Source: a virus
Lineage: Duplodnaviria; Caudoviricetes
Length of the DNA stretch: 64,000 nucleotides
Strand: one strand, 5' to 3'
IMG/VR virus record: IMGVR_UViG_2595698293_000001
Span: 224,001 to 288,000 of that record
The position numbers were made by a program, and so were the translations under genes. Positions within the stretch are counted from its first letter, which is position 1, and every line of letters starts with the position of its first letter. Positions 1-48,603 of this stretch are shown here, piece after piece. The notes under the pieces were generated by a model. That model was not told the DNA's origin. It made no database searches and worked only from the letters and a program-made list of their open reading frames with translations.

Positions 1-42
1 TACTAAACAAATACAAATAAAACCAATGAAGGATTTAAGTAA

Positions 43-600
43 ATGATCATCCAAATCAATAGTTATAAAACAAAAGAAGAACTGACCACCCTTATCATTA
101 AAGCTATTCAAAAAGGGGAAAGTTATATCAAAATTCCATTAGATAAAACAAGCAATCGTAATATTGTTATTTCTCAAATTGATAAAGATTTTGATATCAA
201 TATATGCTATATGGAAGAAACCAGTACTGATATCATTTACTCAGGTACTGAATCATTTAAACCAGACCAAATCATTACAGCAGTGTATAATTGCGTCCAA
301 CGTTATTTCAGTACTGAACCAAATAAAACAATCAGAGAACAACAAAAATACAATACACGAAATATGCAAGAAGTAGAAAAACATAGTAAAAACTTCCCCT
401 GTGGTATGACCGTCAAAGAATTAAAAGAATTAATTAAAGATTGGCCTGAAACCAATCAGTACGGAGAAGATACTTTAGTCTATATCAGTACTGAATCAGA
501 TACGGATTGTACTGTACATTCTTCGTGGTGTTCATCAGTAAGAACTAATGATAATGGTACACTTGTATATGACTTAACTCTTGATACAGAACAAAGATAA
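43..600 (+). CDS. hypothetical phage protein
   Basis: 185-aa ORF, AAGGA RBS, followed by hairpin. Confidence 0.75.
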   Translation: MIIQINSYKTKEELTTLIIKAIQKGESYIKIPLDKTSNRNIVISQIDKDFDINICYMEETSTDIIYSGTESFKPDQIITAVYNCVQRYFSTEPNKTIREQQKYNTRNMQEVEKHSKNFPCGMTVKELKELIKDWPETNQYGEDTLVYISTESDTDCTVHSSWCSSVRTNDNGTLVYDLTLDTEQR

Positions 601-608
601 TTAAAAAG

Positions 609-648
609 ACTCCCCGTAAAACTCGATCAAACGGATTCTACGGGGAGT
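609..648 (+). terminator. hairpin / probable terminator
   Basis: ACTCCCCGTA...TACGGGGAGT inverted repeat just after the stop codon. Confidence 0.55.
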
Positions 649-706
649 ATACTATATTGGACGATATGGTCATTATAGTAGACAATTTAATGGATATGGG
701 TGATTC

Positions 707-802
707 AGTACTGATAATAATGAATAGGAATTGATAAGAATAGTATAGTACTATTCAGTACTATTCAGAGTGAATCAGTACTATTAAGAATGATTAAGTA
801 CT
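707..802. repeat. helically phased AGTACT cluster
   Basis: AGTACT at 707, 747, 757, 777, 797. Confidence 0.8.
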
Positions 803-1075
803 GATATGCCACTAAGTCCGTTTATAAAGTCGCACCCAGTGGGCTACATTTGTAACTATTCAGTACTTAATAATTCAACTCATCAATTATTACAAACCTA
901 ACTATTTCAAATCTAATTACCCCATTAACTAAATCCCCAAATTATATATTAGCAAAAATCCCAGTACTAAATCAAGAAAAATCTGGATTGTCGATGAGAA
1001 AAAATCTGGATTTTAAAAATTTTGAAATGTCGTTCATAGTTCAGGAAAAAAATGAAATCATAACAAGAAAAGTGT

Positions 1076-1104
1076 TGACACGGACATACTGCCATTATAT
1101 AATG
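1076..1104 (+). promoter_or_regulatory. sigma70 promoter for a long non-coding region
   Basis: TTGACA-17-TATAAT, perfect consensus. Confidence 0.85.
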
Positions 1105-1109
1105 TAATC

Positions 1110-1555
1110 CTCAAGACGAGAGAATGTTCTCTCACAGAAAATGCGAAGAAGCCGAGTTTATCTGTCCCTGCGTTAGTGGGCTAACATTTGAATAGGACAA
1201 TACGTAGATGAGTGAAAAAGGTTCAAAGGGAAATATTTGATTCCCTGTAGTATAGTTAATGAGTTAGTACTGATTTAGATATAATCATTGAGTAGTACTA
1301 CTGTCGCAAAGGGAAACCTTTGGCTTCCATGGGGAGTGATGACAGAAGGGCATTATCCTCCATATAGAGTTACTGCGAATAACTCCGTAAGTTGGGTTGT
1401 GGCAAACCTCCTAAAATAGTGAATCTACAGTACTACTGATTGGTAGTACTGCTTTTAATTTAAAGTGTTTCTTTCCATAGAGAAAAGGTGCATGTAACTT
1501 GAACATGTGAACTACGGGAACAGTACTGAACAATTCCAGTACTGATTCCTCTCCA
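1110..1555 (+). ncRNA. candidate large structured ncRNA (~450 nt)
   Basis: perfect promoter, no ORF of 60 aa or more, about 10 hairpins (e.g. GAGAGAA/TTCTCTC, CAAAGG-GAAA-CCTTTG, CAGTACTAC/GTAGTACTG). Confidence 0.55.
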
Positions 1556-1596
1556 AATTTTGGATACAATAATGCTAGGCTTCAGTTAGTACTGAG

Positions 1597-1715
1597 TGAG
1601 AATGATAATGATTCTCATTTGAATTGGATGAGAACGATTCTCATTTACTATTGCAAATGATAATAGATTGCATTTACGAATGGTTCTCATTCGCAGATGA
1701 TAATGATTCTTATTC
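1597..1715. promoter_or_regulatory. array of ~5 Fur-box-like sites
   Basis: TGATAATGATTCTCA (1603-1617) has one mismatch to the Fur 7-1-7 consensus; related copies at 1628, 1655, 1678, 1697. Confidence 0.7.
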
Positions 1716-1847
1716 AAAATTGATTTTTCCGATTTTTTCCATTAGTCACCCTTCAGCGTAGGGTTAATTTTTCCCCTGCCGAATCGGTTTTATATTTTCA
1801 AAATCTGGATTAATCATATCAGTACTAACCCAGATAAACAATACCCT

Positions 1848-1862
1848 TTTACAAATCTTTAC
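1848..1862 (-). promoter_or_regulatory. CpxR-like box
   Basis: TTTAC-AAATC-TTTAC (GTAAA-N5-GTAAA on the - strand), 6 bp from a minus-strand -35. Confidence 0.55.
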
Positions 1863-1885
1863 AAAAAGATTCTAAATGCGAATAC

Positions 1886-1906
1886 AAATGATAATGATTC
1901 TCATTT
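1886..1906. promoter_or_regulatory. Fur-box-like site
   Basis: AAATGATAATGATTCTCATTT. Confidence 0.7.
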
Positions 1907-1914
1907 ACAGTACT

Positions 1915-1960
1915 GAATACTTTTCCCCACGCCCTGGCGTCTCCGGTTCCTCCCGTCTAT
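1915..1960 (-). ncRNA. short two-hairpin RNA unit (divergent copy)
   Basis: minus-strand promoter TTGACT-16-TATAAT (1994-1967); CGG-gaggaa-CCG then ACGC-cagg-GCGT. Confidence 0.4.
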
Positions 1961-2062
1961 ATAAACATTATACAGTACTGAAATATTAAGTCAATACTAT
2001 TTTTTCAAAAAGATTAAAATAAAATACTTGCAATCCTGATATTATTATATTATAATGTTTAC

Positions 2063-2110
2063 AGTACTGAGAAAGTGCTTTTGCCAGCTAGGGTGCGGGG
2101 GAGTATGCGT
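2063..2110 (+). ncRNA. short two-hairpin RNA unit
   Basis: TTGCAA-17-TATAAT; AGTACT-gagaa-AGTGCT then GGGTGC-N6-GTAT. Confidence 0.45.
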
Positions 2111-2111
2111 T

Positions 2112-2132
2112 AAATGAGAATGATAATCATTT
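2112..2132. promoter_or_regulatory. Fur-box-like site between convergent promoters
   Basis: AAATGAGAATGATAATCATTT. Confidence 0.65.
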
Positions 2133-2144
2133 ACAGTACTGGAC

Positions 2145-2180
2145 GGATTTTCCCACCCTCGGGGGTCTCTTTTTGTCTAT
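2145..2180 (-). ncRNA. short RNA unit (divergent copy)
   Basis: minus-strand promoter TTGATA-16-TATAAT; ACCC-ccga-GGGT. Confidence 0.35.
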
Positions 2181-2219
2181 GTAGTAATTATACAGTACTG
2201 AGATACTATATCAAGTCTC

Positions 2220-2234
2220 TTTACAAATCTTTAC
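2220..2234 (-). promoter_or_regulatory. CpxR-like box
   Basis: TTTACAAATCTTTAC, 5 bp from a minus-strand -35. Confidence 0.55.
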
Positions 2235-2328
2235 AAATCACCCGGGGAGATTTTTCTTTACAATAAAAGTACTTGCATAATTCTTTCAGTACTGCTATTA
2301 TATATTCATACCAAACAGGAGAACTACC

Positions 2329-2499
2329 ATGAAATACGCATACTCTTATTTTATTGTGAACGGTGAACGTTTGACCATCGGCCAGGCAGCGGTAAAGCAT
2401 GAAATCATTTGCGATGATCTGGCGAAGATGCTACCAGGTGAAACGCAAGAGTTTTACAAAGGCTTTCAGAAAGTCACTGTGACCCGCTGCGAAGATTGA
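2329..2499 (+). CDS. small early protein (56 aa, not in ORF track)
   Basis: promoter plus AGGAG RBS; MKYAYSYFIVNGERLT... Confidence 0.75.
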   Translation: MKYAYSYFIVNGERLTIGQAAVKHEIICDDLAKMLPGETQEFYKGFQKVTVTRCED

Positions 2500-2562
2500 T
2501 CCAGTACTGGGGCAGCAATGCCCCTAAAACGTCCTGTAACGCATTGTAAGAGGTTTTAGAAT

Positions 2563-2790
2563 ATGGCTAGAGAAGTTAACGCAGGTGATATAAAGGCGGC
2601 TGTACTGCGTACACTGAAAGCATACGGCAGAAAGTTGAATGATCGCAACGTTCCCTATTATTTCCTTGCTGCTACTCATAAAATGGCAATCGCTGAGGCT
2701 CGCGGGTGGCTGAATGATCGCAGTACTGTAAAGAGTACCAGAACAAGAAACGCAATTGAGCGATGGATAAAAGAATTAAATCATTTCTAA
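2563..2790 (+). CDS. hypothetical early protein
   Basis: ORF with GAGG RBS. Confidence 0.7.
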   Translation: MAREVNAGDIKAAVLRTLKAYGRKLNDRNVPYYFLAATHKMAIAEARGWLNDRSTVKSTRTRNAIERWIKELNHF

Positions 2791-2832
2791 TAGTTCAGTA
2801 CTGAAATTATAAGGGGAGTTAATTAATTCCCC

Positions 2833-2847
2833 TTTACAAATCTTTAC
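2833..2847 (-). promoter_or_regulatory. CpxR-like box
   Basis: TTTACAAATCTTTAC, 10 bp upstream of TTGACA. Confidence 0.55.
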
Positions 2848-2892
2848 AAAAGAATTGTTGACATAGTATCCCAGTACTGGTATTATGTATTC

Positions 2893-2940
2893 ATAGACAG
2901 AACAAGTCTTTGGCCCACCGGGTGCGGGGGAGTATCTATT
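2893..2940 (+). ncRNA. short two-hairpin RNA unit
   Basis: TTGACA-17-TATTAT; AGAC-agaacaa-GTCT, CCC-acc-GGGTGC-N6-GTATCTAT. Confidence 0.6.
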
Positions 2941-2946
2941 AGATTG

Positions 2947-2972
2947 AATGAGAATGATAATGATTCTCATTT
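2947..2972. promoter_or_regulatory. Fur-box-like site between convergent promoters
   Basis: AATGAGAATGATAATGATTCTCATTT. Confidence 0.7.
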
Positions 2973-2979
2973 ACTGTAC

Positions 2980-3027
2980 TGAATATATTTCCGCACCCTT
3001 TTGGGCTTTTCGATTACTTTCTACTTG
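2980..3027 (-). ncRNA. short RNA unit (divergent copy)
   Basis: minus-strand promoter TTGCAT-16-TATACT; GCCC-aaaa-GGGTGC. Confidence 0.4.
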
Positions 3028-3066
3028 TTAATAAGTATACCATAATCAGTACTGAATGCAATGGTC

Positions 3067-3081
3067 TTTACAAATCTTTAC
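3067..3081 (-). promoter_or_regulatory. CpxR-like box
   Basis: TTTACAAATCTTTAC, 5 bp from a minus-strand -35. Confidence 0.55.
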
Positions 3082-3178
3082 AAAAGAAAATAATTATAAA
3101 AAGTACTGAAAAAGTACTTGACGTAATAATGTAGTACTGGCATAATACATCCATACCAAACAGAACGGAGTAACTATA

Positions 3179-3466
3179 ATGTTTAATGAAAATGATCATA
3201 TTGTTAAAGAGTTTTCTTTCAGTAAGCCTATCCATTTAGAAAACGGTGAAACGCTGGACAATAAATTTTATGGTAGTATTATTAAGCGTTATACATCGCG
3301 GAGTAGTACTGGAATTTTGTGGGAAGTGAATAAACAGTACAATGGTAATTCGCTGGTTGTCAATGAGTGGGAAAGTTATGCAGTAGCTGAAATGGATTTT
3401 TCTAACTTTATTACTGAATCTTTGAACGATGATATTTTTTACAAGTTCACGGCGGAAAGGGTTTAA
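3179..3466 (+). CDS. hypothetical early protein
   Basis: own promoter, GGAG RBS. Confidence 0.75.
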   Translation: MFNENDHIVKEFSFSKPIHLENGETLDNKFYGSIIKRYTSRSSTGILWEVNKQYNGNSLVVNEWESYAVAEMDFSNFITESLNDDIFYKFTAERV

Positions 3467-3483
3467 AAAGTTTTAAAGAGTAC

Positions 3484-3511
3484 TTGACAACATAAACCAG
3501 TACTGTATAAT
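3484..3511 (+). promoter_or_regulatory. prototype early sigma70 promoter with two AGTACT sites
   Basis: agtacTTGACA-acataaaccagtactg-TATAAT; roughly 30 similar promoters between 2.2 and 20 kb. Confidence 0.85.
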
Positions 3512-3582
3512 GTATTGCATAGAAAGGAGATTCCAGAATAATGGAATCTCCGATAAAACAAACTAATCAGGAGTTAATTACC

Positions 3583-4191
3583 ATGAACGTTATCGATACC
3601 ATCTATTCTAAATCTTTTATCGAACTGAATGAAGAGCAGAAAGAAAAAGCAATTGATATTATGCGGGAAATTGAAAATCAGGACACTACCCCTTATTGGT
3701 CAATTGATCTTGTTAACCAGATGAAAGAAAAATTAGTACAATATGGAATTGATGATTCTGAAATTTTGTGGTCTGGATTTTGTTCACAGGGAGACGGTGC
3801 AAGTATCAGCACTGAATCAATTAATGCTGAGATGTTTTTACGTAAGGTAAAAGCGTGGTCTAAATTTAAAGGCTTGCGTAAATTCATCTCCGAAGAAACT
3901 ATTTCTTTGAGTGTTCGCCGGGTGAGCCATCATTACTATCATGAATATTGTGTTAGTGGTAATGTTGAAATTGCTTATTGTGAAGATGTTACCGCCAAAC
4001 AAGAACAATTAGTGGACGATTTGCAAACTTTGATCACAAGTACTATTCGTGATTTGTCTCGTGAATTGTATAAAGATTTAGGGAATGAAAACGATTATCA
4101 AAATAGTGATGAAGCATTGATTGAATTGATTAATGCAAATGATTATAATTTCAAAGTTAATAGTACTGGTAACGTATTGGGGTTAGCGTAA
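3583..4191 (+). CDS. conserved phage protein (WSGFCSQGDGAS motif)
   Basis: start moved to the ATG after AGGAG; motif recalled from mobile-element proteins of unknown function. Confidence 0.75.
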   Translation: MNVIDTIYSKSFIELNEEQKEKAIDIMREIENQDTTPYWSIDLVNQMKEKLVQYGIDDSEILWSGFCSQGDGASISTESINAEMFLRKVKAWSKFKGLRKFISEETISLSVRRVSHHYYHEYCVSGNVEIAYCEDVTAKQEQLVDDLQTLITSTIRDLSRELYKDLGNENDYQNSDEALIELINANDYNFKVNSTGNVLGLA

Positions 4192-4275
4192 TGACTAAAT
4201 TATATATTCGTTTCTGTTTTGCCTGGTACTTGTATAATCTGCAAAATGGTTATACAGTGAAATAATGCACTGATA

Positions 4276-4321
4276 TACTGTAAAACGTCCTGTAAACGAT
4301 TATGGGACGTTTTAAGGAATA
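4276..4321. repeat. palindromic repeat, copy 1
   Basis: TAAAACGTCC-N14-GGACGTTTTA; near-identical to 11717-11762. Confidence 0.8.
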
Positions 4322-4476
4322 TTAGTACAATGTTAGTACTGAATGATTTAAACGCCTTACAGTGGCTTACCGAGCGTTTAAAAAGTAATTGACGTAATAA
4401 TGTAGTACTGGCATAATTCATCTATACCAAACAACAAAGGGAATCAGTACTGATTCCCCTGTAAGGAGTAACCAAA

Positions 4477-4791
4477 ATGAGTACTAAAGAACTGAATGTA
4501 ACTACCAACACTTATAAGACGTTATGCGGTCGGTTGTTACGTGATTATTACACTGTAGAGATTGAAGAACGCGAATTACCCGAAGATAAACACTATTGGG
4601 AAAGTGGTGTTAGTCCTCTGCTACGGGTAACAACGTCTAAGCATGTTTTCTTTACTTCCCGCATTCATGTTAATAAGCGTGTTGAATTGACTTTCTCTTT
4701 CAGTGGTAGTTATAAAGATCATGAGATCTTGAATGATCGTATCGTTATTAATAAATTTATTCAAATGTATGGTGCGGATTCTTTACTTTAA
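4477..4791 (+). CDS. hypothetical early protein
   Basis: promoter, leader hairpin, AAGGAG RBS. Confidence 0.8.
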   Translation: MSTKELNVTTNTYKTLCGRLLRDYYTVEIEERELPEDKHYWESGVSPLLRVTTSKHVFFTSRIHVNKRVELTFSFSGSYKDHEILNDRIVINKFIQMYGADSLL

Positions 4792-4877
4792 GTACTTGAC
4801 AATTCGATCCAGTACTGTATAATGTATTACATCAAAGGGGATACATAGTGTATCCCTGATATAAAGGAGTAGCGACT

Positions 4878-5237
4878 ATGCGAGCTTTTAACGTTTATAA
4901 GAATGACAAGAAAATTGATGTTGTTTATTATTCCGAAGTAATGACGGCAAAAGAAGTAACCGATTTGCTGAATAGCCGTGGTGAATACAACGGCGAAGTA
5001 AAAGCATTTCGGTCATTGAATAGTGCGAATATTCGCACAGTACTGAAAAATGCTAAAACTGTTTTATTCAATGATGACGAATATTTTAATAAAGATGTTA
5101 CGGGTATTAAAAACCTGGAAGATCTGAAAAGCCTTATTGGTATTAAAGGCAACGTATACAAAGTGGGGGAAGTCGGATCCCGCCATGAATATAAATTAGC
5201 CAATAGTGATTATAAATTTTCAATCCTGGTAATGTAA
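4878..5237 (+). CDS. hypothetical early protein
   Basis: promoter, leader hairpin, AAGGAG RBS. Confidence 0.8.
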   Translation: MRAFNVYKNDKKIDVVYYSEVMTAKEVTDLLNSRGEYNGEVKAFRSLNSANIRTVLKNAKTVLFNDDEYFNKDVTGIKNLEDLKSLIGIKGNVYKVGEVGSRHEYKLANSDYKFSILVM

Positions 5238-5238
5238 T

Positions 5239-5442
5239 ATGAAAGTTTATATTTTGGAAGTGGAAGAATGTAATTCATATTCTTACAGTGGTACACTATC
5301 ACGCGTGGAGGCGGTATTTGCCAGCGAGAAAGAAGCCCACGCCGCTGGGGTTCAAAAAGTAAAAGAAGGCTATGAAGGTTATAGCGTCGATGCTTATGAT
5401 ATTCAGGGCGATCTTTCAGCACTTTTAAAGGAATTAAAATAA
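5239..5442 (+). CDS. hypothetical early protein
   Basis: coupled to upstream ORF. Confidence 0.7.
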   Translation: MKVYILEVEECNSYSYSGTLSRVEAVFASEKEAHAAGVQKVKEGYEGYSVDAYDIQGDLSALLKELK

Positions 5443-5657
5443 TGGAATATGAATTAATATATCACACTCGGTTATATGTTATTTTCTTTGAAATAACGTT
5501 ATGGGGAGTAAAGGCAACGATTTATAATAAAGACGTTGTCGACGATCAAGAATGGATCGTTGTTGCAGAAGATAAAACGCCTCATGATTCGTTAAGTACT
5601 GATTTTAAATTATGCCGTGAATTATTAAAGAGAATAAGAAAAGAGAATAATATATAA
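5442..5657 (+). CDS. hypothetical early protein
   Basis: TAATG overlap, AAGGA RBS. Confidence 0.7.
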   Translation: MEYELIYHTRLYVIFFEITLWGVKATIYNKDVVDDQEWIVVAEDKTPHDSLSTDFKLCRELLKRIRKENNI

Positions 5658-5687
5658 AACAAAGGGGATCGATTGATCCCCTTTGTT
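5658..5687. terminator. bidirectional intrinsic terminator
   Basis: AACAAAGGGGATC-gatt-GATCCCCTTTGTT. Confidence 0.8.
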
Positions 5688-5706
5688 GTTTCAGTACTGA
5701 ATTAAT

Positions 5707-5756
5707 AATAGATACACTACGGCACCCTATGGGTTAGTGCCTTGTGTCCGGCTTAT
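5707..5756 (-). ncRNA. short two-hairpin RNA unit
   Basis: minus-strand promoter TTGACT-17-CATAAT; GCC-ggacacaa-GGC, CCC-ata-GGGTGC-N6-GTATCTAT. Confidence 0.6.
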
Positions 5757-5801
5757 GTGGTTATTATGCCAGTACTGCGAACATAAGTCAATAGTTGATT
5801 T

Positions 5802-5816
5802 GTAAAGAAGTGTAAA
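5802..5816 (+). promoter_or_regulatory. CpxR-like box
   Basis: GTAAA-GAAGT-GTAAA, 10 bp from minus-strand TTGACT. Confidence 0.55.
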
Positions 5817-6019
5817 TGCACAGGAAGCATTGTAAGGCGTTAATCTGTTGCTGGTGGCTGATAGTATAGAGTAGTGTTTTAGATTGATTGTAGGCCGTTG
5901 TAGGCGTTTATAGATAGTAAAGTACTGATAATGTTTAATGATCCTGGTATGTGCAAATTATTTTAATTTTTTTCGTATTGGGTATTGACGGATTATGTCA
6001 GTACTGGCATAATGTATCA

Positions 6020-6150
6020 CATGAAGCGGCGAGATAGAAAATCATCTCAGTAGCTGGCCAGTAAAGCATACGAAGTCCTGGTGTCGCCTCAAACGGTTTT
6101 AGGTATCAAATAACACGTAACATCTAAACGTTGATGATACTGAAAACTAA
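6020..6150 (+). ncRNA. candidate structured RNA or leader upstream of the H-NS-like gene
   Basis: promoter TTGACG-17-CATAAT at 5985; nested stems GGCGA/TCGCC, GAGAT/ATCTC, CCAG/CTGG, GTATCA/TGATAC. Confidence 0.4.
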
Positions 6151-6246
6151 AAAGAAAAAAGTAGTTGACAAGTACTAACGAGAATGAGATAATCTCTCTC
6201 GTTGAAACAAACAAACAATCTTAATCAAAACTTAAAGGTGAATAAA

Positions 6247-6747
6247 ATGGCTAAACTGAATTCTGTGATCGTTGCTCTGCTGGCTGGTGATGTTGCTGCT
6301 CTGAATACTTCTTTCGCGTCGGTATCGATGGAAGATATGAAAACTGTTCGTAATAACTTTAACGAGTTTTACTCCAAGTTTAAAGCTGCTAATGAAGCTG
6401 CTGAAGCGGCGGCGAAAGAGCGTAAAGTACAGATCGAAACCGAAACGAAAGAACTGGTAGACGCCCTGGTAACTGCTGGCCTGGATCTGGAAATGGCCGC
6501 CGAAGTCGCCAGCCAGAAAATGGCGGTGAAATATCCCGAACTGGCTCCGAAGTCTGCAACTGGTAAAACCTGGTCGTTTGAAACCGTATTCGTTAACGTT
6601 GACGGTGAAAAACTGGAAATTGGCACCAAAGGCAACAAAGGCAGTATGAAAGCACTGGCGGCGGCACGCGAAGCAATTGCCGCAGGCAAATACAAAGATC
6701 GTGCTGAATGGATCGCCGCTCACGCCTGGACTGAAACCGAAGCGTAA
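6247..6747 (+). CDS. H-NS/MvaT-like nucleoid-associated protein (putative)
   Basis: coiled coil ending LVDALVTAGLDLE resembles H-NS YREMLIADGIDPNE; C-terminal GEKLEIGTKGN resembles MvaT GEVIETKGGN; highly expressed codon usage. Confidence 0.5.
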   Translation: MAKLNSVIVALLAGDVAALNTSFASVSMEDMKTVRNNFNEFYSKFKAANEAAEAAAKERKVQIETETKELVDALVTAGLDLEMAAEVASQKMAVKYPELAPKSATGKTWSFETVFVNVDGEKLEIGTKGNKGSMKALAAAREAIAAGKYKDRAEWIAAHAWTETEA

Positions 6748-6768
6748 TAATTCAGTACTGTAATAATT

Positions 6769-6794
6769 AGCCTCCTGTAATTAGGAGGCTTTTT
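6769..6794 (+). terminator. intrinsic terminator
   Basis: AGCCTCCT...AGGAGGCT-TTTT. Confidence 0.85.
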
Positions 6795-6904
6795 ATTTTG
6801 TTCAAAAAAATATTTTAATTTATTTTTTGAACGGACTTCAAAAATCGGATATAATAATAAAGGGTGTTAATTACAGAGACCCCCATAGTGTTCGCTACGC
6901 TCAC

Positions 6905-6941
6905 ATAATGATCTTACTCGTTGCACTCGTAAGATCATTAT
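6905..6941. repeat. 13-bp perfect inverted repeat
   Basis: ATAATGATCTTAC-tcgttgcactc-GTAAGATCATTAT. Confidence 0.8.
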
Positions 6942-7397
6942 CCAATCGGCCTTCGGCGATTTCTTTTTGATTTCCTACGGAAACCAAACGAAACCACCAG
7001 CAAAGGCAGATCCCATTATTTGATTTAGTTAGTACTGCGATTAATTAGTAATTCATTGCACTACATAGCAATCAATTCCTTTTGTAATAGCTCACAGGAC
7101 GCAATAAGACGCGTTTAAATGACTTCCCTATGTAATGCCATTCCTTTTTAATAAGTCCTCTTAAAACGCGTTACAGTGCGTTATATGGCGTTTTTATAAT
7201 ACTCATCATTTCTTTTTCAAAAAGTACTTGCATTAATGATCCAGTACTGCAATAATGTACTCACTGAAACGCAGTAAGCGAAGTAAGTAAATGCAAATAA
7301 GTACTTGACAAAGTGTTGTAGTACTGGCATAATGAATACATCAAAACGAAATAGCAAAGGGATTCAGTACTGAATCCCTGTTAAGGAGAAAAACCAA

Positions 7398-7871
7398 ATG
7401 TTAAAACTTCATAAAGTACTTGATAACGCAGTTGTAACCGACTTTTTCCTGTCTCTTAACAACGAACCGAAAACAGCGAAGGAAATTGTTTTGAGTGGTT
7501 ACATCGCCAGCAAGTCAGAGATCGCACATTTGGAAAGTGCTTTCAAGTCCGGTGATGCATTATACAAAAAAATGCAAAATACCATCGAAGATTTGCAATA
7601 TATCAATTTACGTGATATTGTAGACAATAAATTGGATATTTCAGAAGAAGCACGCGAGAAGCTGGTAAGTAAATTATGTTACCGCTGCCGAACTGCAAAA
7701 TGGAATCGCATTCGTAGTATTATTACTTACGATTTAAGTAATATCGATTCCAAATCAATTCTTGAACGTATGTTATTAAATTTACAAAGCAATGAGTGGT
7801 TTTATACCGCCGCTCAATCTCATAGCGAAGAAATTGCATATATTCGTGATTATGTAATTTACAGCAAGTAA
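7398..7871 (+). CDS. hypothetical early protein
   Basis: promoter, leader hairpin, AAGGAG RBS. Confidence 0.8.
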   Translation: MLKLHKVLDNAVVTDFFLSLNNEPKTAKEIVLSGYIASKSEIAHLESAFKSGDALYKKMQNTIEDLQYINLRDIVDNKLDISEEAREKLVSKLCYRCRTAKWNRIRSIITYDLSNIDSKSILERMLLNLQSNEWFYTAAQSHSEEIAYIRDYVIYSK

Positions 7872-7944
7872 TTAATAATTGATTAGCCATCATTAAAGCT
7901 GGTGGCTAATAGAATATTAATAACCTGTTAGGAGAATAATCTTT

Positions 7945-8214
7945 ATGAAAGGTATTAGTACTTTAATTGATAAAAACACTCATGTAAGACGTTCAATGAT
8001 TGCCGTATCACTGGCTAAAGTTGTTGCAAGTGGTTATCTGGTTTTTGTTGTAGATGGTAAATTGCAAGAGCGTTCAATTGCATTTAGTACTAAAGAAAAT
8101 TGCCGTTATATTGTATACAAGAAAGAAGCATACAAGATAGATTTACCAGCGAAACCGATCTCCGGTGGTTACAATGTTGAAAGTCTATATGAAAGGCCAC
8201 CGTATACTGCGTAG
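7945..8214 (+). CDS. hypothetical early protein
   Basis: AGGAG RBS. Confidence 0.75.
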   Translation: MKGISTLIDKNTHVRRSMIAVSLAKVVASGYLVFVVDGKLQERSIAFSTKENCRYIVYKKEAYKIDLPAKPISGGYNVESLYERPPYTA

Positions 8215-9465: not shown

Positions 9466-9479
9466 GTTATTATATATTC

Positions 9480-9529
9480 ATACCACAGAGCAAGTGGTTT
9501 AGCCCACAGGGTGCCGAGATGTATCTATA
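9480..9529 (+). ncRNA. short two-hairpin RNA unit
   Basis: TTGACT-17-TATTAT; ACCAC-agagcaa-GTGGT, CCC-aca-GGGTGC-N6-GTATCTATA. Confidence 0.6.
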
Positions 9530-9661
9530 GTTTAATGATTTTAAGTACTGAAAAATAATTATAAAAAGTACTTGCTAGACGTGAATTCTTTTAAGAATTC
9601 ACTTGTATTTGTGATTCAGTACTGCTATTATATATTCATACCAATTAAGGAGATTATCCAA

Positions 9662-47976: not shown

Positions 47977-48603
47977 ATGAAAAAAGAATCATATAACATA
48001 CTTCGTGTATGTGAAAATTTAATATTGTTGTTACTGGCTTATAAGAAAAATATAAATTTAAGCAAGAAAATTCTTGATTATCATATTAATATTAATATTA
48101 CATGTAGTACTCATATTTCAATATATTTAAATATTAGTAATTTTGGTTCTATTACAACAACATCATCCAATATAATTTCATTTAATGCTGATAATATTCA
48201 ACCAGTTGAATTAAATTTACCAATTGAAGATATTAAAGGTGAAATGATTTATTTTGATGACCGATATTGTGAATATGATGTTAATAGTCCAAATTTAGTC
48301 GGAGCGTATTTAAAAAAATATGATCCTGATATTGATGGATACAATGAAACAAACTGCCATGAAGTAATGGAAAAGACGTATGATGAATGGGCTTTTCAGT
48401 ACAGTACATTATATGATTTTGTTCCAGATAAAGAAGATTATTTTTACTTGAAAAATTTCATGCATAAATTGGGTAACGAATTCGATTATACATATTCAAA
48501 TATTTTATTTGAATCAAAAGTGGATATTGTGAATCTAAAATCCGCAATTGATATATGTACCGAAACTGTTAAAAGGAAGATTGATGAAAACTCCGATATT
48601 TGA
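47977..48603 (+). CDS. family A protein
   Basis: YDEWAFQYSTLY; start corrected. Confidence 0.8.
   Translation: MKKESYNILRVCENLILLLLAYKKNINLSKKILDYHININITCSTHISIYLNISNFGSITTTSSNIISFNADNIQPVELNLPIEDIKGEMIYFDDRYCEYDVNSPNLVGAYLKKYDPDIDGYNETNCHEVMEKTYDEWAFQYSTLYDFVPDKEDYFYLKNFMHKLGNEFDYTYSNILFESKVDIVNLKSAIDICTETVKRKIDENSDI

Follow-up and report, generated by a model that had tools for sequence, protein, structure and literature searches.

Candidate Fur boxes clustered inside the terminal repeat of a Klebsiella jumbo phage and their possible role as a barrier on phage DNA

A Klebsiella jumbo phage carries a compact cluster of sequences that match the operators of the host iron regulator Fur. The cluster occupies positions 1597–2972 of the window analyzed here, a stretch of 64,000 nucleotides that spans positions 224,001–288,000 of a 345,809-bp virus record (IMGVR_UViG_2595698293_000001). 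The source is a K64-1-like phage of ~346 kb, and the cluster lies close to the edge of its long terminal repeat. The established role of Fur is to repress iron genes of the host, together with a few cargo genes carried by prophages. We tentatively favor a reading, to which we give slightly less than an even chance, in which the Fur-Fe2+ of the host binds the boxes and forms a cis-acting barrier on the phage DNA. What we infer within this reading is that Fur binds phage DNA, that it acts there as a barrier and that this effect depends on iron.

Fur-box sequences cluster in the leader of the terminal repeat

The 19-mer AATGATAATGATTCTCATT occurs exactly three times in the genome, with starts at window positions 1601, 1887 and 2953. 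Sites beginning at 1627, 1696 and 2113 differ from it at two or three positions, and a further match at 2947 overlaps the last exact copy with a shift of 6 bp. When all 345,809 bp were scanned, seven of the ten places with three or fewer mismatches to the 19-mer fell within 1.37 kb, so the cluster that a first-pass annotation had proposed at 1597–2972 is real. Scored against the 19-bp Fur consensus at three or fewer mismatches, we obtained five matches where 0.18 were expected, and none of 100 shuffles reached five. The phage's own palindrome gave seven matches against 0.07 expected. The same annotation had noted that 1603–1617 departs from the 7-1-7 motif at a single position, and this was borne out (TGATAATGATTCTCA). 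One-mismatch matches to this motif begin at 1603, 1889 and 2955, and the cluster holds three of the genome's four sites within one mismatch of it. Relative to the 19-bp consensus the boxes have three mismatches, which is within the range of proven Fur sites.

At 1597–1715 the boxes form an array, with sites starting at 1601 (no mismatch), 1627 (three) and 1696 (two) and an overlapping one at 1595 (four). Two degenerate units are also present, at 1651–1676 and 1678–1692. The array had been described as holding about five sites. Three with at most three mismatches and one weaker site stand and the rest are degenerate, so this count is fair only if the degenerate units are included. The single copies that had been listed outside the array were all found, with starts at 1887, 2113 and 2947/2953. 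Overlapping predicted sites 6 bp apart occur at 1595/1601, 2113/2119 and 2947/2953. The repeated half-site is mostly TGAGAAT/ATTCTCA and less often the textbook TGATAAT, and the full palindrome has 9-7-9 symmetry. The repeat units are palindromic (no strand is assigned to any box) and lie in mixed orientation, without the regular phasing of direct repeats. The array has neither a promoter nor a GC clamp.

A stretch that is AT-rich, repeat-rich and gene-free might also be a replication origin or an iteron region. We regard this as extremely improbable: neither the DnaA-box consensus TTWTNCACA nor an IHF consensus occurs in window 600–3300, the units are not phased, and they equal a known operator.

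Window 1000–4200 has matches in Klebsiella jumbo phages of the genus Alcyoneusvirus, namely RCIP0023 (96.6% identity), Muenster (96.3%) and K64-1 (91.9%). In the Muenster record, positions 1–20,030 are annotated as a terminal repeat on the basis of a PhageTerm prediction, and the first gene does not appear before 1304. Muenster position 1 corresponds by homology to window 815, which places the left boundary of the ~20-kb direct terminal repeat there. Because of this correspondence and the lack of early genes, we assign the cluster to the gene-poor leader of the repeat, with the array 783–901 bp inside its left edge. There are two repeat copies per virion DNA, and for most genes of the repeat no function is known.

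Five close relatives (Muenster, K64-1, RCIP0023, KP13-7 and phiKp_21) retain the array and the single boxes, the array with few or no changes. Where the boxes of these relatives vary, GAGAAT and GATAAT hexamers are swapped for one another. In RCIP0023, a G-to-T change disrupts the long palindrome and improves the Fur hexamers.

The boxes belong to the sequence class of bacterial Fur operators

The exact 19-mer is present in at least 120 bacterial contigs from many phyla, many of them from genomes of 60–69% G+C. Its carriers include Janthinobacterium, Burkholderia, Legionella, Bacillus, Paenibacillus, Vibrio and Shewanella. For 122 exact bacterial sites, we tallied the nearest open reading frame (ORF), 80 aa or longer, with its start no more than 350 nt from the motif and its direction away from it. 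Among the matches listed, 100 of the 122 sites had at least one such neighbor, giving 147 ORFs in total. Pfam matches among these 147, again for the matches listed, comprised FeoA (17), TonB-dependent receptor (10), TonB_C (7), Peripla_BP_2 (4), NEAT (2) and BFD (2), in a tally that has no random-site baseline and that probably takes in many spurious ORFs from G+C-rich DNA.

In E. coli K-12, 14 places match the 19-mer with three or fewer mismatches, and we annotated all 14. They lie upstream of gpmA, yoeA, ryhB, sufA, fecI, nfeF, mntP and oppA, at the starts of yddA and ybeQ, inside wbbK and gss, and in two prophage spacers, ylcI–nohD (DLP12) and nohA–ynfO (Qin). The best of them differs from the phage 19-mer by one mismatch, and the half-site ATTCTCATT is found in the top Fur sites of gpmA, ryhB, fecI and oppA. 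Of the 14, eleven belong to the strongest Fur clusters reported by Chen et al. 2007 (PMC2189734), namely yoeA, gpmA, nohB/D, ryhB, fecI, yebN/mntP, nohA, oppA, sufA, yqjH/nfeF and yddA. For ten of these, the center of our match and the coordinate in Table 4 of that paper differ by a constant offset, such as a change of genome version would produce; yddA was paired by its name alone. The same study (PMC2189734) reports gel shifts or footprints for six of the 11.

Both the iron-gene neighbors in bacteria and the top Fur sites of E. coli thus agree with the initial identification of the sequence as a Fur box. We conclude, on sequence grounds, that the phage boxes are Fur-box sequences of the highest quality and candidate Fur sites, and that Fur is the best candidate for their binder. 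They are of the same sequence class as the E. coli Fur operators, which also include overlapping sites 6 bp apart. Unlike those operators, they lie off promoters, in the terminal repeat of a lytic phage and with no iron gene adjoining, and their binding is predicted.

The boxes might instead be bound by an early protein of the phage or by a different host factor, and resemble Fur boxes through convergence. Such a binder would suit the preference for TGAGAAT/ATTCTCA over TGATAAT, the 9-7-9 palindrome and a repeat whose genes are mostly of unassigned function. It would not explain why the exact 19-mer stands beside iron genes across bacterial phyla or why the ATTCTCATT half-site recurs in the E. 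coli Fur sites named above, and T5-like, phi92-like, lambdoid and jumbo phages would all need a common protein. The phage also has no gene of the Fur family. We therefore think that a binder other than Fur is unlikely. A phage-encoded Fur was ruled out as well, since a search for the family (PF01475) returned 0 matches in the phage genome and found the control in 13 of 14 known genomes.

Single boxes lie inside small transcription units

The sigma-70 promoters and terminators described below are predictions, with promoter scores given out of 12, and boxes are positioned relative to predicted starts. No box overlaps a predicted promoter in our scan of the window, as the first-pass annotation had stated. 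That annotation also placed the boxes downstream of short RNA units, and here it was mistaken: the single boxes are internal to the units, with the promoter on one side and the terminator on the other, and stand 50–80 bp from the promoters. All three single boxes share a 58-nt module, in which the box is followed by TTTACAGTACTG and then by a GC-rich hairpin arm. We refer to these modules as A, B and C.

Module A contains an exact 19-mer at 1887–1905. Its plus-strand promoter has been lost in this phage; KP13-7 has a complete promoter-hairpin unit at the same place. On the minus strand, an early promoter (TTGACT-16-TATAAT, 1967–1994, 11/12) puts the box at +56 to +74. In module B, the box at 2113–2131 has two mismatches and sits between convergent promoters, one on the plus strand at 2028–2056 (box at +51 to +69) and one on the minus strand at 2187–2214 (11/12; box at +50 to +68). 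The terminator scan places a terminator-like hairpin with a T run at 2150–2175 (strand not stated). Module C has a plus-strand promoter at 2858–2886 (11/12, with an upstream TG; box at +55 to +79), followed on the same strand by a long GC-clamped hairpin and a U run (2912–3007). The tip of this hairpin is the box palindrome itself, at 2947–2971, which comprises two sites 6 bp apart, one at 2947 with three mismatches and an exact one at 2953.

Convergent pairs of units had been proposed around the boxes at 2113 and 2947. The pair is clear at 2113. At 2947 none is predicted: no minus-strand promoter for module C rises above the scan threshold, and the promoter-like copy there is degenerate by eye. 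Box 1887 has the minus-strand promoter only and no convergent pair. Taken over both strands, the predicted starts that flank the single boxes put them at +50 to +79, a geometry that fits a roadblock.

The units of modules B and C (2020–2180 and 2850–3016) belong to a family of promoter-hairpin-terminator units, with the stem GCCCACAGGGTGCGG ... CCGCACCCTGTGGG, that is common to Rak2-like jumbo phages of six host genera and has no RNA-family match. The unit carries a Fur-like tip in Erwinia phage Hallingskeid, Klebsiella phage fENko-Kae01 and Salmonella phage Munch. In fENko-Kae01 and Munch the stem shows a double change from CCCAC/GTGGG to CCCAT/ATGGG.

The palindromes could in principle serve only as RNA, as the tips of terminator hairpins or small RNAs, with no protein-binding role for the DNA. 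Module C folds at −45.6 kcal/mol (z −5.55), and none of 200 shuffles was as good. A promoter, a stable GC stem and a U run, which together make a complete small transcription unit, are found in modules B and C; module A lacks this combination in this phage, as does the array. The GC helix is also kept across phages: in nine units from seven phages, 90% of cells are paired, against 33–59% with the partner slid. Its covariation is weak, with two pairs changed on both sides and the observed cell count reached in 58 of 500 shuffles. A role confined to RNA would leave other features unexplained. Modules B and A fold no better than shuffles (z −0.66 and −0.82), the array has no promoter or GC clamp, RCIP0023 disrupts the stem yet keeps the Fur hexamers, and there is no match in Rfam. 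Nor would a hairpin need the exact sequence of a bacterial operator. We judge an element acting only as RNA to be highly unlikely.

The distance from the repeat edge is conserved

In the loci that we fetched around the hairpin unit of fENko-Kae01, Munch and the phages CBB (Pectobacterium) and GAP32 (Cronobacter), no box was found at three or fewer mismatches. Scans of the whole records placed the boxes of fENko-Kae01 and Munch closer to the start of the repeat. In fENko-Kae01, all sites with three or fewer mismatches lie at 772–1055 and 2345 from the repeat start, in both copies, and so within the first 2.4 kb of the repeat. The array region is at 690–800 and the box of the hairpin unit at 1037–1055. 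The site at 2345 falls inside a gene homologous to the YeeU-like antitoxin stretch and is a chance Fur-like match. Munch has sites at the coordinates of fENko-Kae01 when these are counted from the start of the Munch record. In Hallingskeid, four such places fall within 0.9 kb; none occurs in CBB, and GAP32 has a single stray one.

The repeat of fENko-Kae01 measures 19,736 bp, as mapped with PhageTerm. Because the array of our phage lies 783–901 bp, and the array region and hairpin-unit box of fENko-Kae01 690–1055 bp, from the respective edge, a Fur-box cluster 0.7–1.0 kb inside the repeat edge is conserved in two phage groups with mapped ends.

Similar arrays and boxes occur near the genome ends of other phages

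With a 136-nt query covering the array, we retrieved 231 phage records that aligned at 70–78% identity over most of its length, mainly from T5-like and phi92-like phages. The hosts of the unrelated phages that carry arrays are all Enterobacterales, and most of these are Escherichia and Salmonella phages; what such phages have in common is thus the type of host. The exact 19-mer is present in at least 118 viral contigs. Among the matches listed, two or more sites per 300 nt occur in 76 of 118 viral versus 19 of 120 bacterial loci, and three or more in 25 of 118 versus 1 of 120.

In phage T5, DNA entry stops after 8%, and the cause has been a long-standing puzzle. We found that T5 positions 9468–9640 are built from the units of the array and include the exact 19-mer at 9577. 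This stretch takes in copies 1–4 of direct repeat C and palindromes E–I of the injection-stop region (Repeat Region 3), and it surrounds the calculated shear point at 9618. T5 also has a perfect 7-1-7 box at 233–247, inside the dmp gene and 233 bp from the left physical end. With a T5 repeat of 10,139 bp, the array copy in the right-hand repeat is ~0.5–0.7 kb from the right physical end. The injection-stop region has a conserved set of DnaA boxes according to a preprint (Davison, 10.1101/866236), and the word Fur has 0 occurrences in the full text of that preprint (10.1101/866236).

The two arrays are alike in that each lies in gene-free DNA of a long terminal repeat, ~0.5–0.9 kb from a repeat boundary, and BLAST aligns the window array with those of T5-like phages. 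They differ in placement, the T5 array being at the inner edge of the left repeat and the jumbo-phage array at the outer (left) edge. DnaA boxes and the A1 and A2 genes, which second-step transfer requires, are features of T5; in the jumbo phage we found no DnaA box in window 600–3300 and no A1/A2 homologue in the genome at E values up to 0.01, in a search that had no positive control and would miss distant analogues. Two-step DNA transfer is known for T5 and not for the jumbo phage.

Lambda has a perfect TGATAATCATTATCA at 48,452–48,466, 36 bp from its right end and beside GGGTCCT, which we take to be cosQ. In the cryptic prophages DLP12 and Qin, a Fur box lies 35–53 bp to the left of the exact cosN 12-mer, and the Qin nohA site was gel-shifted by Fur according to Chen et al. 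2007 (PMC2189734). What lambda, DLP12 and Qin share with the jumbo phage is a Fur box near a physical genome end. They differ in having a single box rather than an array, in being of the cohesive-end type, and in a distance from the end of tens of bp rather than ~800 bp. Our literature search, which did not extend to subscription journals or supplements, found no published description of Fur boxes in the terminal repeats of lytic phages, in the T5 stop region or beside cosQ.

These placements raise the wider possibility that Fur-box arrays are a terminus-linked cis element shared by many phages of Enterobacterales, at which Fur would act as a 'speed bump' for DNA translocation. The sites would then be 36 bp from the end in lambda, 0.2–0.7 kb in T5 and 0.7–0.9 kb in Rak2-like jumbo phages. 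Fur might make DNA entry pause, which would be the T5 injection stop, or it might retard the packaging motor shortly ahead of the terminal cut, and the ~20-kb repeat of the jumbo phage might behave like the first-step-transfer segment of T5. We offer this as speculation and consider it rather unlikely.

A barrier in cis or a decoy for Fur

In the reading that we favor, the boxes would be high-affinity sites for the iron-loaded Fur of the host, kept as cis-acting DNA elements of the terminal repeat: an array of four to five boxes 0.8–0.9 kb inside the left repeat edge, and single boxes at the tips of the units. In iron-replete cells, Fur sitting on these boxes would obstruct the phage DNA as a protein barrier. 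At the small units, RNA polymerase arriving from either side would be blocked, and at the array other machines that track along DNA close to the genome end could be slowed as well. Titration of free Fur would follow as a by-product, increasing with replication of the genome.

Titration could also be the purpose. The boxes would then be decoys, and a replicating phage genome would draw off Fur and derepress the iron-uptake regulon of the host. The principle is that of the Fur titration assay (FURTA), which works at a few hundred plasmid copies in E. coli, where there are several thousand Fur molecules. The likeness is in the many copies of strong Fur sites on replicating extrachromosomal DNA, and the difference is that FURTA is a laboratory assay; we know of no natural element that uses its principle. 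Seven near-consensus places per repeat copy, with two repeat copies per virion DNA, would serve such a purpose. So would sites that equal or surpass the best chromosomal ones (the best E. coli match has one mismatch), the avoidance of promoters, and arrays that are far commoner in viral than in bacterial loci among the matches listed (25/118 versus 1/120). Early in infection, however, a single genome would bring too few sites, and late derepression would be useful only if host transcription were still active. The single box of lambda cannot titrate Fur. The array-carrying phages presumably use unrelated receptors (capsule, flagellum, FhuA and BtuB), so raising a Fur-regulated receptor would be of no general benefit. 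A pure titrator needs neither the fixed distance from the repeat edge nor the placement near genome ends seen in T5 and lambda, and for this reason the decoy explains the data less well. A Fur barrier that acts in cis close to the genome end accounts for the data better than titration alone, and we give the decoy little credence.

Several observations weigh against the barrier. None of the boxes occupies the usual position of Fur, on −35 and −10 elements. In Chen et al. 2007 (PMC2189734), 303 of 363 E. coli Fur clusters overlap a strong promoter, and clusters downstream of promoters give weak repression only (PMC2189734). The promoter-hairpin unit has a degenerate tip in CBB and no Fur box in GAP32, so the unit does not need the box. 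Because module C folds as a very stable hairpin, part of the conservation of the palindrome could act at the level of RNA.

High-affinity Fur sites that strictly lytic phages conserve in their terminal repeats and off promoters would give Fur a new role, either as a host factor used on phage DNA or as a target manipulated by phages. Fur would become a concrete host candidate for the T5 injection stop, and its binding could bear on how terminase recognizes genome ends. The outcome of infection would be tied to the iron status of the host, which would be relevant to Klebsiella phage therapy in iron-poor tissues.

Other features of the region

Upstream of the array, a promoter of perfect consensus (TTGACA-17-TATAAT, score 12/12) is predicted on the plus strand at 1075–1103, where Muenster has no coding sequence. 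It would give a non-coding leader of ~350 nt that ends at a terminator-like hairpin at 1428–1451. The fENko-Kae01 repeat has an analogous leader promoter at 332–360. A search of window 1–8000 against Rfam gave two chance-level matches elsewhere (E 0.63 and 0.98) and none for the leader or the units.

Two short sequences accompany the early promoters. The palindrome CAGTACTG has 247 copies genome-wide, against ~3 expected from base composition, and is densest at 215–250 kb of the record (window 1–26000). It stands between the −35 and −10 hexamers of early promoters and also immediately follows each single Fur box. The early promoters of this phage group may have it as their signature, or it may be a separate binding site. 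The second, TTTACAAATCTTTACAAA, lies just upstream of the −35 element of early promoters, at window 1847–1868, 2219–2240, 2832–2853 and 3066–3087; its 18-mer has five exact copies in the genome, all in the cluster region. It could be an UP-element-like sequence or the site of an activator.

In public metatranscriptomes from wastewater and fermentation (four runs), low-depth contigs (2–8×) cover window 600–4300 in patches, with none over 2088–2211 or 2832–3327. In three runs from two studies, contigs cover ~1664–1967, 1683–1947 and 1793–1927, with strand and ends not shown. They could represent a leftward transcript from the 1994–1967 promoter through box 1887 into the array, or DNA carry-over, and we draw no conclusion from them. 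A pattern scan of viral contigs for a GC stem plus a box was discarded, as its 12 matches were all unrelated sequence, mostly coding in appearance.

Further into the repeat, a 216-aa ORF at window 3541–4191 matches a gene that is named YeeU-like antitoxin in the Muenster and K64-1 records. In KP13-7, a 528-bp gene is inserted at the place of module B (2329–2856 of the compared KP13-7 stretch), which marks the unit region as a hot spot of gene gain and loss.

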